From NCBI GenBank assembly GCA_044892525.1, contig CM097886.1, positions 156,984,001-157,048,000 on the forward strand: a stretch of DNA of 64,000 nt, written 5' to 3'. The translations under genes were made by a program, and so were the position numbers. Shown piece by piece: positions 29,101 to 45,500 of this stretch; the first letter of the stretch is position 1; every line of letters starts with the position of its first letter. The DNA comes from Schmidtea polychroa. Lineage: Eukaryota. A model generated the notes under the pieces. That model searched no databases. It had not been told where the DNA came from and saw only the letters and a list, made by a program, of their open reading frames with translations.

Positions 29101-30836
29101 GAATATAATAATTTTAAATCAATAGGGATCTTTAGACAGTTATTCGAAAAATACAAACTAATTAATTAAACACCAGCATGTCAAGATAAAATAAAATAAC
29201 CTAATTTTTTATTTAGTGTTCGATTTAGAGTTCTTGGTAATATGAAATTGATAAAAAATTGACTATTAATATTGGATACTTTTTTTGATATTTAATTATT
29301 TTTCATTATTAAAACAGATCAAAGATTAAGGAACAGTAGATGGATTGGTCACCGCTAGATCAGGTCACCGCTAGATCACCTACCCCCACCCCCCACCCCC
29401 CCCCCCCGGCAGGAAAAATTTTTTTAAGATTTTTTTTTCAAGGTCAAATTTTTAACAAAGACAATGACTCATCAAGGTCATTGAAACAAAGAATTTTTTT
29501 TGTTTTAATTATCGATTATTATTAAGTGATCTAGCGGTGACCTACCTTTTGACTTCCCAGAACATTTTGAGTTTTCAAAATTATTTAAATATTTATACAT
29601 CATTTTGAAGGCCAGACGAAAATCTATCTTTTGAGCCATTAAAATAATTTTTATCATCAGTGGTACAAAAGTTATTAATTTTTTAGTCAGACACTAATTT
29701 GGTTAAAATTATTATTATTTTTCAAAAATATTATTAAGTGATCTAGCGGTGACCTACCTTTTGACTTCCCAGAACTTTTTGAGGTTTCAAAATTATTTAA
29801 ATATTTATACATCATTTTGAAGGCCAGACGAAAATCTATCTTTTGAGCCATTAAAATAATTTTTATCATCAGTGGTACAAAAGTTATTAATTTTTTAGTC
29901 AGACACTAATTTGGTTAAAATTATTATTATTTTTCAAAATATTATTATTTTCAAGGTCATATTATTATTAAGTGATCTAGCGGTGACCTACCTTTTGACT
30001 TCCCAGAACCTTTTGAGTTTTCAAACTTATTTAAATATTTATACATCATTTTGAAGGCCAGACGAAAATCTATCTTTTAAGCCATAGAAATAAATTTTAT
30101 CATCAGTGGTACAAAAGTTATTAATTTTTTAGTCAGACACTAATTTGGTTAAAATTATTATTATTTTTCAAAATATTATTATTTTCAAGGTCATATTATT
30201 ATTAAGTGATCTAGCGGTGACCTACCTTTTGACTTCCCAGAACTTTTTGAGGTTTCAAAATTATTTAAATATTTATACATCATTTTGAAGGCCAGACGAA
30301 AATCTATCTTTTAAGCCATAGAAATAATTTTTATCATCAGTGGTACAAAAGTTATTAATTTTTTAGTCAGAGACTGATTTATGGTTAAAATTTTCAAAAA
30401 TGTTCAAAATTTACTAAGTAATTTGCGGGTGATTTGTCAATCATCNNNNNNNNNNNNNNNNNNNNNNNNNNNNNNNNNNNNNNNNNNNNNNNNNNNNNNN
30501 NNNNNNNNNNNNNNNNNNNNNNNNNNNNNNNNNNNNNNNNNNNNNNNNNNNNNNNNNNNNNNNNNNNNNNNNNNNNNNNNNNNNNNNNNNNNNNNNNNNN
30601 NNNNNNNNNNNNNNNNNNNNNNNNNNNNNNNNNNNNNNNNNNNNNNNNNNNNNNNNNNNNNNNNNNNNNNNNNNNNNNNNNNNNNNNNNNNNNNNNNNNN
30701 NNNNNNNNNNNNNNNNNNNNNNNNNNGTACTGCCCCGAGTTTATCCGACAAAATAATTTGTCTCCCTATAGGTAATGCTCGCAAGGGTACTGGTCACGCT
30801 CAACAAGTCACAAGGGTACTGCGCAACACACACACA

Positions 30837-30870
<34 letters not shown>

Positions 30871-31443
30871 CTTTTCAAGGTCATATTATTTTATTTTTAT
30901 TTTAATTATCGATTGCGTAATAATAATAATTTTGTTTAAATCGTTGATTATATGATAATATTTTTATTTTTGTTTTAATTATCGATTACTTAATAATTTA
31001 ATTTTGTTTAAATCGTTAATTATATAATAATATTTTTTTTTAATTATCAATCACATAATAATAATTTCATTTTGTTTAAATCGTTGATTATATTATTTTT
31101 TTGTTTTAATTATCGATTACGTTTGTTTAAATTATCGATTATGTAATAATTTAATTTTGTTTAAATCGTTGATTATATGATTTTTTTTGTTTTAATTATC
31201 AATTACACAATAATTTAATTTTGTTTAAATCGTTGATTATATGATTTTTTGTTTTAATTATCAATTACACAATAATTTAATTTTGTTTAAATCGTTGATT
31301 ATATTATTTTTTTTTATTTTAATTATCGATTACGTTTGTTTAAATTATCGATTATGTAATTATTTAATTTATCATTATTATTGGGAAAGAACGCCCGCAC
31401 GGAAGATTAAAATTATTATTATTATTTTCAAAGTTTTAATCAA

Positions 31444-31501
<58 letters not shown>

Positions 31502-32239
31502 ATTTTCAAAGTTATTTTGAAAATTCTTCTTATTATTATTATAATTATAATTTGCAAATATTCATAAAACCTAATTTCTACGTCCATTTTATGCTTTTCA
31601 GCATTTTCATCATTTGTATATTTTAATAATTTTCAATATTTTCATAATTTCCAACATTTTCATGATTTTCATAATTATTAATATTTTCATGGATTTTTAA
31701 CATTTTCATAATTTTCTACATTTTCATAATTTTCTACATTTTCAATATTTTCATTATTATTTCAGGAACATTTTCATTAGTTACATGAACATTTTCATCA
31801 AATATTTTTCAAAGTAATATTTCCGTTAGCTTATTTTCAAANNNNNNNNNNNNNNNNNNNNNNNNNNNNNNNNNNNNNNNNNNNNNNNNNNNNNNNNNNN
31901 NNNNNNNNNNNNNNNNNNNNNNNNNNNNNNNNNNNNNNNNNNNNNNNNNNNNNNNNNNNNNNNNNNNNNNNNNNNNNNNNNNNNNNNNNNNNNNNNNNNN
32001 NNNNNNNNNNNNNNNNNNNNNCATAAAACTTAATTTCTGCGTCAATTTCATGATTTTCAACATTTTGATCATTTACATGAATATTTTAATAATTTTCATT
32101 ATTATCATAATTTTCTACATTTTCAATATTTTAACGATTTTCAACATTTTCACGATTTTCAGCATTTTCATGATTATTTCAGGAACTTTTTCATCAAATA
32201 TTTTTCAAAGTATTATTTCCAAAGAATTATTTTCAAAGA

Positions 32240-41922: not shown

Positions 41923-41953
<31 letters not shown>

Positions 41954-42475
41954 TCTTTGAAAATAATTCTTTGGAAATAATACTTTGAAAAATATTTGAT
42001 GAAAAAGTTCCTGAAATAATCATGAAAATGCTGAAAATCGTGAAAATGTGAAAATAATAATATAATCAACGATTTAAACAAAATGAAATTATTATTATGT
42101 GATTGATAATTAAAAAAAAAATATTATTATATAATTAACGATTTAAACAAAATTAAATTATTAAGTAATCGATAATTAAAACAAAAAAAATAATACGACC
42201 TTGAAAATAATAATATTTTGAAAAATAATAATATGACCTTGAAAATAATAATATTTTGAAAAATAAACAAAATGAAATTATTATGTAATTGATAATTAAA
42301 ACAAAAATAAAAATATTATCATATAATCAACGATTTAAACAAAATTAAATTATTAAGTAATCGATAATTAAAACAAAAATAAAAATATTATCATATAATC
42401 AACGATTTAAACAAAATTATTATTATTACGCAATCGATAATTAAAATAAAAATAAAATAATATGACCTTGAAAAG

Positions 42476-42512
<37 letters not shown>

Positions 42513-45500
42513 TGTGTGTGTGTTGCGCAGTACCCTTGTGACTTGTTGAGCGTGACCAGTACCCTTGCGAGCATTACCTATAGGGAGACAAATTATTTTG
42601 TCGGATAAACTCGGGGCAGTACNNNNNNNNNNNNNNNNNNNNNNNNNNNNNNNNNNNNNNNNNNNNNNNNNNNNNNNNNNNNNNNNNNNNNNNNNNNNNN
42701 NNNNNNNNNNNNNNNNNNNNNNNNNNNNNNNNNNNNNNNNNNNNNNNNNNNNNNNNNNNNNNNNNNNNNNNNNNNNNNNNNNNNNNNNNNNNNNNNNNNN
42801 NNNNNNNNNNNNNNNNNNNNNNNNNNNNNNNNNNNNNNNNNNNNNNNNNNNNNNNNNNNNNNNNNNNNNNNNNNNNNNNNNNNNNNNNNNNNNNNNNNNN
42901 NNNNNNNNNNNNNNNNNNNNNNNNNNNNNNNNNNNNNGATGATTGACAAATCACCCGCAAATTACTTAGTAAATTTTGAACATTTTTGAAAATTTTAACC
43001 ATAAATCAGTCTCTGACTAAAAAATTAATAACTTTTGTACCACTGATGATAAAAATTATTTCTATGGCTTAAAAGATAGATTTTCGTCTGGCCTTCAAAA
43101 TGATGTATAAATATTTAAATAATTTTGAAACCTCAAAAAGTTCTGGGAAGTCAAAAGGTAGGTCACCGCTAGATCACTTAATAATAATATGACCTTGAAA
43201 ATAATAATATTTTGAAAAATAATAATAATTTTAACCAAATTAGTGTCTGACTAAAAAATTAATAACTTTTGTACCACTGATGATAAAATTTATTTCTATG
43301 GCTTAAAAGATAGATTTTCGTCTGGCCTTCAAAATGATGTATAAATATTTAAATAAGTTTGAAAACTCAAAAGGTTCTGGGAAGTCAAAAGGTAGGTCAC
43401 CGCTAGATCACTTAATAATAATATGACCTTGAAAATAATAATATTTTGAAAAATAATAATAATTTTAACCAAATTAGTGTCTGACTAAAAAATTAATAAC
43501 TTTTGTACCACTGATGATAAAAATTATTTTAATGGCTCAAAAGATAGATTTTCGTCTGGCCTTCAAAATGATGTATAAATATTTAAATAATTTTGAAACC
43601 TCAAAAAGTTCTGGGAAGTCAAAAGGTAGGTCACCGCTAGATCACTTACTAATATTTTTGAAAAATAATAATAATTTTAACCAAATTAGTGTCTGACTAA
43701 AAAATTAATAACTTTTGTACCACTGATGATAAAAATTATTTTAATGGCTCAAAAGATAGATTTTCGTCTGGCCTTCAAAATGATGTATAAATATTTAAAT
43801 AATTTTGAAAACTCAAAATGTTCTGGGAAGTCAAAAGGTAGGTCACCGCTAGATCACTTAATAATAATCGATAATTAAAACAAAAAAAATTCTTTGTTTC
43901 AATGACCTTGATGAGTCATTGTCTTTGTTAAAAATTTGACCTTGAAAAAAAAATCTTTAAAAAATTTTTCCTGCCGGGGGGGGGTGGGGGTAGGTGATCT
44001 AGCGGTGACCTGATCTAGCGGTGACCTGATCTAGCGGTGACCAATCCATCTACTGGGAACGTTTTGAAATGTGTTACGGAGAGTTACAGGGGGTTAAAGA
44101 TTTTGTCACTTAACACAGAGAAATTTTCAAATAACAAAAGCAATTTATTATATTTCATTAAAAGTTTTGAAAAATCATACACGTTGACAAGTAAATTAAG
44201 TTCAGTATTTGTTGACTAAATTAATGCTAAATGCTTAAACATTTATTTTGTTATAGCAGTTGTCTACAATATCAAAATTTAAAATTTTTAACTATTTTAT
44301 GAAAATAAGTGGAAAAGTAATTATCAAACGCGTTTTCATAATTTGAGATAATTTTTTTTGTCAGTGTAAATGTCACTTTCGGAATTTTTTGAGTTTGAAG
44401 CATTATGTGAAGTTTTTTCAAATGTTATGATTGATGGCTATGAAACGGTTGCTGATTTTATCGATCGTGATTCTTCTGAAATAGAAAATTCGAGTATAAT
44501 TCATAAATCTGAGACTTGGATCACTCAGTGTGTAAGATCAACACAATACATGACTCAAATCGTGAAGTGAACGATGACAGATGCTGGTCATTTTTTCCAA
44601 AAGTGCTCAAGTCTCGATTTTTACCACCGTCAATCATCACTGATAAGAGGGCGATGCAGGCGATGTAAATCATTGGGACCCGTGATATAACCATATTTGG
44701 CATTTTTATATAATTAAATAATTTTAAAATTCTAAGTTTGTGATAATTTAAGTTTATATCATGGAATTTCATAAATAATAAATAGGATAACTAAAACAAA
44801 TGTTTTTTTAAAAAATATATCAGTTTGTAATTGCAAAGACAAATTGCATCGGGGGCCCGACCTGGCTCTCGACGGCTCTGCCACCAATATCACTGGGTAA
44901 TTCGCATATGGTTGACATAGCTTCAGTTGAAAATGAAAATTTCAAATATACATCATTATTTAAAAGTCTTGCATTCGGCGTTGGTTACATGTCCTATGAT
45001 AACTGTGGCCCAAGTATCAAAGAAAAAATCAAATCTCGCACTTGTCCTAAATGTGGAATTTATTTTGCTTCCTTAACATTACTCCAAAATCACCGCAAAA
45101 TACACACAAAAGAAAAAGATATGATAAAAACAAGAATCCAGCTAAAAAGATTACTCCAGAAACGAAATGATGAATTTATGGTTATAACTTGGAATTAAAT
45201 CATGCGAAGGGGGGAGGGGGTAAAAAAAGTCGAATTTTAGCGTTACGTAATTCACAAACGTTCTCTTAATTTTCTAAGCGACACAAAATATTGATCTTTT
45301 GTCATAATGAAGATAAATAAAATATTAAAAAAAAAACAGAACCAAGGCGAACAAAAAATTAAGATTTTGTTTATTATTTACTTATTATTTCTGTTTGTCA
45401 ATAAATCCTACTGTGTTGGATCTTATTGCATTAATTAAGGAAATTTATTTTCCCACCAAAGTTATTTAAGTATCAAGAGATTTATAATTCATTTTAAATA

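Follow-up and report, generated by a model that had tools for sequence, protein, structure and literature searches.

The window analysed here is a 64,000 nucleotide stretch of the Schmidtea polychroa genome (GenBank assembly GCA_044892525.1, contig CM097886.1, forward-strand positions 156,984,001–157,048,000). It contains a 14,720 bp foldback element with Polinton-type ends, which is inserted at the terminus of an older, decayed DNA transposon (the host). Positions are those of the window unless a locus is named. The features of the element, called the window copy below, and of its target site are:

29329–29334, + strand: left copy (AGGAAC) of the 6 bp Polinton-type target duplication, identical to the first six bases of the host
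29335–44054, no strand: whole foldback element, AGTAGA...TCTACT, 14,720 bp
29335–30818, + strand: type-A Polinton end, common to full-gene elements; partly N
30837–32516, no strand: low-complexity repeat tract of ATT runs, 9-mers and 62–72-mers
32980–33531, + strand: RING-finger open reading frame (ORF), 183 codons from stop to stop, 108 amino acids (aa) from the ATG at 33205
33532–36765, no strand: inner arm, non-coding, with no match to helper proteins and no shared ORF
36766–37454, no strand: unpaired loop of 689 bp; its exact junction with the arm is found at 14 loci, spread over three contigs
37455–44054, – strand: right arm, the mirror of 29335–36765
40689–41240, – strand: mirror copy of the RING ORF
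44055–44060, + strand: right copy (GGGAAC) of the 6 bp duplication, in place as the left terminus of the host

Architecture of the element

The element is a palindrome in which the arms are complementary over 4,116 bp at 99.9%, flanking the loop at 36766–37454. The outer arms of the window copy differ in repeat numbers, by substitutions and by one indel of about 0.8 kb; the left arm is longer than the right by about 0.8 kb at the repeat tract (30837–32516). Four stretches of N, about 0.9 kb in total, fall within the element. The type-A end is made up of 16 bp repeats (29347–29378), an array of 212/234 bp units (29517–30392) and a 92 bp sub-terminal module (30727–30818), of which three diverged internal copies were also found (32650–32686; 34583–34664, + strand; 36497–36571, – strand). 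The stretch that the window copy has in common with type-A elements is the first 1.5 kb. Identity to full-gene copies was 92–94% over the first 0.4–1.1 kb and 97% over the module in four of the five tested.

Termini and target site duplications

The junction letters were as given in the initial annotation, with ttaaggaac preceding AGTAGA on the left (29326–29340) and TCTACT preceding gggaacgtttt on the right (44049–44065), and its assignment of Polinton-type AGT..ACT ends held, these ends being common to full-gene Polintons. Mavericks are characterised by a 6 bp duplication together with ends made of AGT or AG repeats (PMC8097293); the terminal signature is correct but is an already known Polinton hallmark. 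A comparison of the termini with Polinton ends confirmed the AG...CT type, but AGTAGA is one letter off the (AGT)2 of PMC8097293.

The type-A terminal 28-mer occurs exactly 272 times in the genome (132 forward and 140 reverse; none for the control). A sample of 100 listed ends, all on contig C1, gave 44 adjacent pairs, and 38 elements were examined after the exclusion of five pairs with an integrase gene and one pair of 30 kb. An exact 6 bp duplication flanked 33 of the 38; non-matching flanks were found in five, and a 4 bp duplication in none. In the window copy five of the six letters match (AGGAAC and GGGAAC). The duplications of eight further two-ended sibling copies were exact in six cases, with one mismatch in one and two mismatches in another, and the one-letter mismatch in the window thus has parallels among its siblings.

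Two models had been proposed for the junction, a 6 bp duplication and a 4 bp duplication (GGAA) with fixed CAGTAG ends. The flank tally bears out the former. The latter is refuted by the tally and by the base just outside AGTAGA, which varied over 30 ends (T 11, A 8, G 6, C 5), so that a fixed CAGTAG end fails. A further argument put forward for the 6 bp model was that the rebuilt empty site (ttaa-gggaacgtt) matched the other end of the host in length. This did not survive: the A at 29329 is used twice, in the TTAA end and in the duplication, so the match is off by one and lends no support to a model that is right on other grounds.

Gene content and the RING gene

When the window copy was searched with the proteins of full-gene Polintons (tblastn, E 0.01), no match was found apart from spurious frames in the terminal inverted repeats (TIRs), with about 0.9 kb of the copy being N. 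Polinton PolB, integrase, ATPase, protease and capsid were all missing from it by this search. Decayed core genes in the interior were considered and rejected, as there was neither a tblastn match nor a shared ORF. The initial annotation had recognised the Polinton-like ends but overlooked both the absence of all core genes and the membership of the element in a large foldback family.

The only sizeable protein-like ORF of the window copy encodes a RING finger, one per arm (Pfam zf-C3HC4_3, E 1.7e-9). Of 26 RING-family elements, 21 keep the 108 aa frame open, and the RING region (32784–33530) is 87% identical at the DNA level to type-B copies, that is, copies with the second terminus type described below. 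The gene was missing from ten full-gene type-A elements and was located between the polymerase and the end in both type-B elements examined. It is native to type-B Polintons. Relative to three type-B copies, synonymous divergence (0.12–0.15) exceeded non-synonymous divergence (0.04); relative to a fourth relative the values (0.044 and 0.031) were barely apart. It may have been in the helpers that RING was under selection. The gene has 863 exact matches in the genome, helpers included, and a homologue search with the protein returned one near-identical record only. In the inner arm beyond RING, no shared ORF of at least 70 aa was found in ten of ten copies checked. A candidate 44 nt intron upstream of the RING ORF had no counterpart among the joints listed (contigs, four runs).

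Full-gene Polintons of the same genome

All core genes, namely polymerase, integrase, ATPase, protease and capsid, were present in ten of the 38 type-A elements, which are referred to as helpers. The annotated helper copy encodes an A32-type ATPase, an adenoviral-type protease (C5), a TBP-like ORF and an integrase consisting of rve with a chromo domain, the rve score being under the Pfam cut-off. The polymerase is a protein of 1,372 aa with exonuclease and polymerase motifs; it had no direct Pfam polymerase-domain match and no match among PDB sequences and phages, and its atlas neighbours were DNA_pol_B_2 clusters (0.95–0.97). The 407 aa capsid protein has a predicted double jelly-roll fold (pLDDT 91) with Foldseek matches (E 1e-16) to the major capsid proteins of iridovirus, PBCV-1 and virophages. 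The helper family with the ends of the window copy therefore consists of Polintons with pPolB, integrase, A32 ATPase, C5 protease and double jelly-roll capsid.

The type-B terminus occurs 1,240 times in the genome. When type-A helpers were compared with two type-B elements, the core block was 88–94% identical at the DNA level and the polymerase only 73%, and polymerase type tracked terminus type in the two type-B copies compared. Mosaicism of replicase modules is described in Polisuviricotina (bioRxiv 10.64898/2026.10.13.758929), where, as in helpers A and B, replication modules are swapped and the morphogenesis block is kept.

Several additional observations were made on the helpers. The TBP-like ORF (145 aa; L042:3853–4314, – strand; Pfam TBP, E 2.5e-14) is found in both subfamilies and is 95% identical between A and B. 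The integrase frame (L042:5620–6768) contains an in-frame ATT/ATC run, translated as a poly-isoleucine tract of variable length, in more than 100 near-identical copies, and this run may be an intron. L085 and L088 represent further Polinton lineages with integrases about 72% and polymerases about 35% identical to those of type A; L085 also has a RING gene near one end.

A family of foldbacks with recurrent fold points

The interior of the window copy was found in 23 of the 38 type-A elements, 17 with at least two inverted RING copies and six with a single RING copy. The remaining derivatives among the 38 were three foldbacks of helper parts and two plain deletions. The recurrent loop classes measure 689, 605, 357 and 724 bp, and these four cover most copies.

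The exact arm/loop junction of the window copy was present at 14 loci on three contigs. Thirteen of these were examined (the window copy, two members of the type-A sample and ten further siblings); eight had type-A ends and five type-B ends. In all 11 copies with two ends visible, two of which resemble a local duplication of one insertion, both ends were alike. One fold junction at many loci with two end types indicates that the palindrome moves as a unit, and the same interior on A or B ends indicates that, once the fold existed, termini were exchanged and the new ones came to stand on both sides. The family thus has the features by which non-autonomous derivatives are assigned: ends and duplication length as in the autonomous family, and multiple independent insertions.

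The five elements without a matching duplication were all foldbacks (5/17, compared with 0/21 of the others), so rearrangement or mis-assembly affects the foldback class. Exchanged duplications were seen between neighbouring foldbacks in two regions. In L013–L016 (C1:42.65–42.85 Mb) the arrangement is GACATA[E]TCTCTT ... TCTCTT[E]GACATA over about 200 kb, where E is the element, and in L025–L027 (C1:65.56–65.68 Mb) an ATTATA pair spans about 120 kb. These may reflect ectopic recombination, cointegrate-like events or mis-assembly.

The foldbacks of helper parts (L040/L041, L147/L148 and L157/L158) consist of two with inverted polymerase and one with inverted ATPase/integrase/TBP, each with a 6 bp duplication, and one of them carries the repeat tract of the RING foldbacks at 99%. 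L084 holds, at about 2.5–6.3 kb, a mini-element some 3.8 kb long, which has inverted ends of Polinton-like type and part of a RING gene.

Arm similarity and element length

Within 11 copies the median distance between the two arms was 0.03%, whereas the nearest other copy was 0.3% away and a typical one about 2%. Several copies had no arm-to-arm differences over 3.5–4 kb. Arms were closer within a copy than to other copies in eight of 11 cases in a first, sparser sample, from which copies lacking one anchor were dropped and in which one row was poorly aligned. This hinted that the arms are re-templated at every insertion, an idea that was rejected when the figure fell to two of nine on inclusion of closer siblings. 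Instead, the arms are passed on unchanged in the short term and become evened out in the longer term.

Foldbacks measured 17.3 ± 2.3 kb (n=20) and full-gene elements 17.8 ± 1.4 kb (n=12; Mann–Whitney p 0.30), and a single arm is half of the helper length. Intact vertebrate Mavericks are about 17 kb with a 10% spread, which has been read as a capsid constraint (PMC8097293).

Interpretation

The window copy has the form of a self-complementary molecule in which one end is doubled around a loop. We consider it probable (roughly 0.7) that it is a helper-dependent snap-back satellite, copied and integrated by the enzymes of full-gene Polintons of the same genome. This reading draws on the ends held in common with the helpers, the recurrence of a single fold point at many loci that each have a separate duplication, the occurrence of the interior on either end type, the type-B RING gene and the helper-like length. 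From the ends, the duplications and the copy number we infer that mobilisation would occur in trans, by helper proteins.

The mechanism we propose begins with an ancestor of about 8 kb, comprising an end and the RING region. A template switch in the course of protein-primed strand-displacement replication would have folded it back into a doubled molecule with an origin and an integrase site at each end, allowing helpers to replicate and integrate that molecule. Displaced strands could then re-anneal as a long panhandle that would occasionally copy one arm onto the other, so that a newly acquired terminus reaches both ends. Such spread of the terminus would let the satellite move between two helper polymerases. 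The insertion site of the window copy itself coincides exactly with the first six bases of the older transposon remnant, which belongs to a family with 3 bp duplications. That doubling was kept because it restored a packageable length is a tentative suggestion, somewhat less probable than its contrary. The fuller picture is possible but more doubtful still: a germline satellite of Polinton viruses, palindrome-doubled to a capsid-filling length, with a RING-ligase gene from one helper, that swaps terminal origins between two helper polymerases, copies the new end to both sides via a 7 kb panhandle, and so amounts to a heritable, integrase-fixed defective-interfering genome.

Several points weigh against the satellite interpretation. 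Flanks do not match in five of the 17 foldbacks, the end hexamer AGTAGA differs by one letter from the (AGT)2 motif (PMC8097293), and no source was traced for about 3.9 kb of arm plus loop. Once the closest siblings were included, arms were closer within the copy in only two of nine cases, and some left/right arm differences are common to distant loci. The foldback lengths span 12.8–22.7 kb and the window copy is short (14.7 kb), as are seven two-ended RING siblings outside the test (14.2–17.2 kb) and one more sibling that lacks RING (7.0 kb); in addition, ends were paired by proximity, which limits the lengths that could be observed. With these short copies and the pairing-limited sampling, the likeness in length between foldbacks and helpers is no more than suggestive of a packaging constraint.

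The main rival is that the element is a non-autonomous one moved by the helper integrase only, being cut out and re-inserted without polymerase or capsid, that its arms and ends were evened by chromosomal gene conversion, and that the match in length is coincidental. Long chromosomal palindromes do undergo arm conversion, Drosophila Foldback-like elements are cut out and re-inserted, and the left/right differences inherited between loci look as if both arms move unchanged. However, hundreds of copies (863 exact RING matches, helpers included) and whole termini exchanged between two polymerase types, with the ends alike in 11 of 11 copies, fit replicating free molecules better, and retroviral-type integrases are not known to excise Polintons alone; we regard this explanation as unlikely, though less so than the others. 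It is much less probable that the palindromes formed in place, by local fold-back repair after a shorter derivative had inserted. The existence of several fold points and of a single RING copy in six of 23 RING elements would suit such an origin, but four loop classes cover most copies, and 14 loci on three contigs have one exact junction in common, the examined ones being flanked by separate 6 bp duplications. In-place formation is already largely refuted by this recurrence and these duplications.

An assembly artefact of a very high-copy repeat would explain why several copies have no arm differences over 3.5–4 kb and why the flanks disagree in five of 17 foldbacks, two of which have exchanged duplications. 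Nevertheless, 12 of the 17 lie between unique flanks with duplications that match, the two arms of the window copy are not identical, owing to substitutions, repeat numbers and the 0.8 kb indel, and the arm differences common to distant loci speak against assembler collapse, making an artefact very improbable. The remaining alternative concerns the target rather than the fold, namely that a Sola-like transposon with a TTAA target was inactivated when the element inserted into its TIR, perhaps as a preferred site. The duplicated hexamer is indeed the host terminus, and the left TIR of the host is broken right beside the insertion. This account is also improbable: 3 bp duplications flank eight of 11 host copies and none has 4 bp, no second case was seen at 60 other ends, and internal deletion and divergence had already reduced the host to a remnant.

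Comparison with known systems

Polintons/Mavericks resemble the window copy in having AG...CT ends, a 6 bp duplication, long TIRs and a length of about 17 kb (PMC8097293; PMC6431247), and full-gene relatives that carry its ends code for pPolB, integrase, ATPase, protease and capsid. The window copy is unlike them in that it has no core gene, that the inverted repeat takes in all but 689 bp, and that its hexamer AGTAGA is neither (AGT)2 nor (AG)3. Like other non-autonomous derivatives, it has helper ends without helper genes and an equal duplication length. It differs from these in being a whole-element foldback with an interior mostly unrelated to the helper whose ends it has, and in belonging to one lineage found on two terminus types. 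Non-autonomous Polinton derivatives exist in Repbase. Such elements are assigned by their ends and duplication length (PMC4455052).

Adenovirus is known both for inverted-repeat defective genomes and for terminal-repeat correction. In adeno-associated virus (AAV), snap-back defective genomes are self-complementary, and template switching has been proposed for them (PMC8235507). In both, one end is doubled by fold-back around a loop and a full genome is needed; the viral molecules, however, are transient by-products in infected cells, whereas the foldbacks here would be fixed in the germline by integrase and amplify as stable lineages of about full unit length. The AAV snap-back genome is the nearest analogue described so far. 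Butterfly polintons with gene-containing 2 kb TIRs (bioRxiv 10.1101/2025.02.07.637071) are alike in that TIRs can extend inward over genes. Unlike the window copy, they and the Polisuviricotina mosaics keep the core genes, and the accessible text on them describes no gene-poor whole-element foldbacks. The accessible parts of PMC11414722, PMC12239620 and PMC5199201 had nothing on foldback Polintons or duplication lengths. No description of whole-element foldback Polintons was found among the papers listed in a literature search; subscription journals, Repbase Reports and supplements, which were outside its scope, may contain one.

Replication and packaging of Polintons have so far been inferred rather than observed. 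A large, young foldback family serves as a natural record in which sequence can be used to test both, with respect to the cis signals that are sufficient, panhandle-like correction of arms, the matching of terminus and polymerase, and a length constraint operating without genes.

The host transposon and neighbouring features

The features of the host are:

29326–29328, + strand: left 3 bp target duplication of the host, TTA, matching TTA at 45266–45268
44055–45265, + strand: decayed non-autonomous DNA transposon of a family with 3 bp duplications; right TIR at 45240–45265
44812–45198, + strand: C-terminal remnant of the host transposase with a C2H2-like finger (Pfam zf-C2H2, E 3.8e-4, under the cut-off); 123 genome matches
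45266–45268, + strand: right 3 bp target duplication of the host, TTA

The host reads TTA/AGGAAC ... GTTCTC/TTA in the window. It is an internally deleted remnant of 1.2 kb, already decayed and diverged from its relatives, with 82 genome matches (the best 82–93% identical over parts) and a single transposase-like ORF of 128 codons. Sola elements make 4 bp duplications, TTAA in the case of Sola3. The proposal of a Sola-like host with TTAA was not upheld, since the 3 bp duplications were exact in eight of 11 distinct two-ended copies and no copy had one of 4 bp or more, which excludes a 4 bp Sola-type target. TAA or TTA preceded 23 of 37 ends and TTAA only three, and G was the first base in 26 of 37.

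Since the hexamer that was duplicated belongs to the host, as its first six bases, the foldback inserted later and is the younger element, as had been proposed; the insertion is not, as stated initially, a few base pairs inside the TIR. These six bases persist to the right of the insertion, and about 34 bp of the left TIR region are missing directly after 44060. It is this deletion that ruins the left TIR. No second host copy with the same left-end deletion was found in the genome, and the deletion may or may not date from the insertion; the initial proposal that the foldback disabled the left end of the host carries little weight. Targeting of host TIRs was considered and rejected: no host-type TIR start was found within 60 bp of 60 other Polinton ends, and a type-A element near another host copy was 370 bp away from it, not inside. 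With no second case among the 60 ends, landing on the host terminus was likely chance, and the nesting is ordinary, giving only the order of events.

The transposase fragment of a longer host copy had no match in Pfam or NCBIfam and no longer homologue was found; an atlas lead (0.86) pointed to PF07592, which we take to be TP36, behind unnamed eukaryotic clusters (0.92–0.93). Zator was reportedly described by Bao et al. in 2009 as having a 3 bp TWA duplication and GG ends. PIF/Harbinger also makes TWA duplications. The host is like Zator in its 3 bp duplication, mostly TAA/TTA, and in a 26 bp TIR starting with GG; unlike it, the host family yielded no intact transposase, and PIF/Harbinger is an alternative. 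The TWA duplications, GG ends and PF07592 lead point to Zator as a possible identity of the host. Zator is related to bacterial TP36 (PMC7386202), and Sola and Zator are without Pfam domains (PMC5751038).

Elsewhere in the window, a 505-codon ORF (59160–60677, + strand) is probably a TRIM/NHL-like gene of the host organism; it has a RING finger at the N-terminus and a weak match to a beta-propeller. A protein-kinase exon (51054–51452, – strand; Pfam E 2e-20) is adjoined by a purine-rich minisatellite of 12/23/35 bp units (49457–50957).

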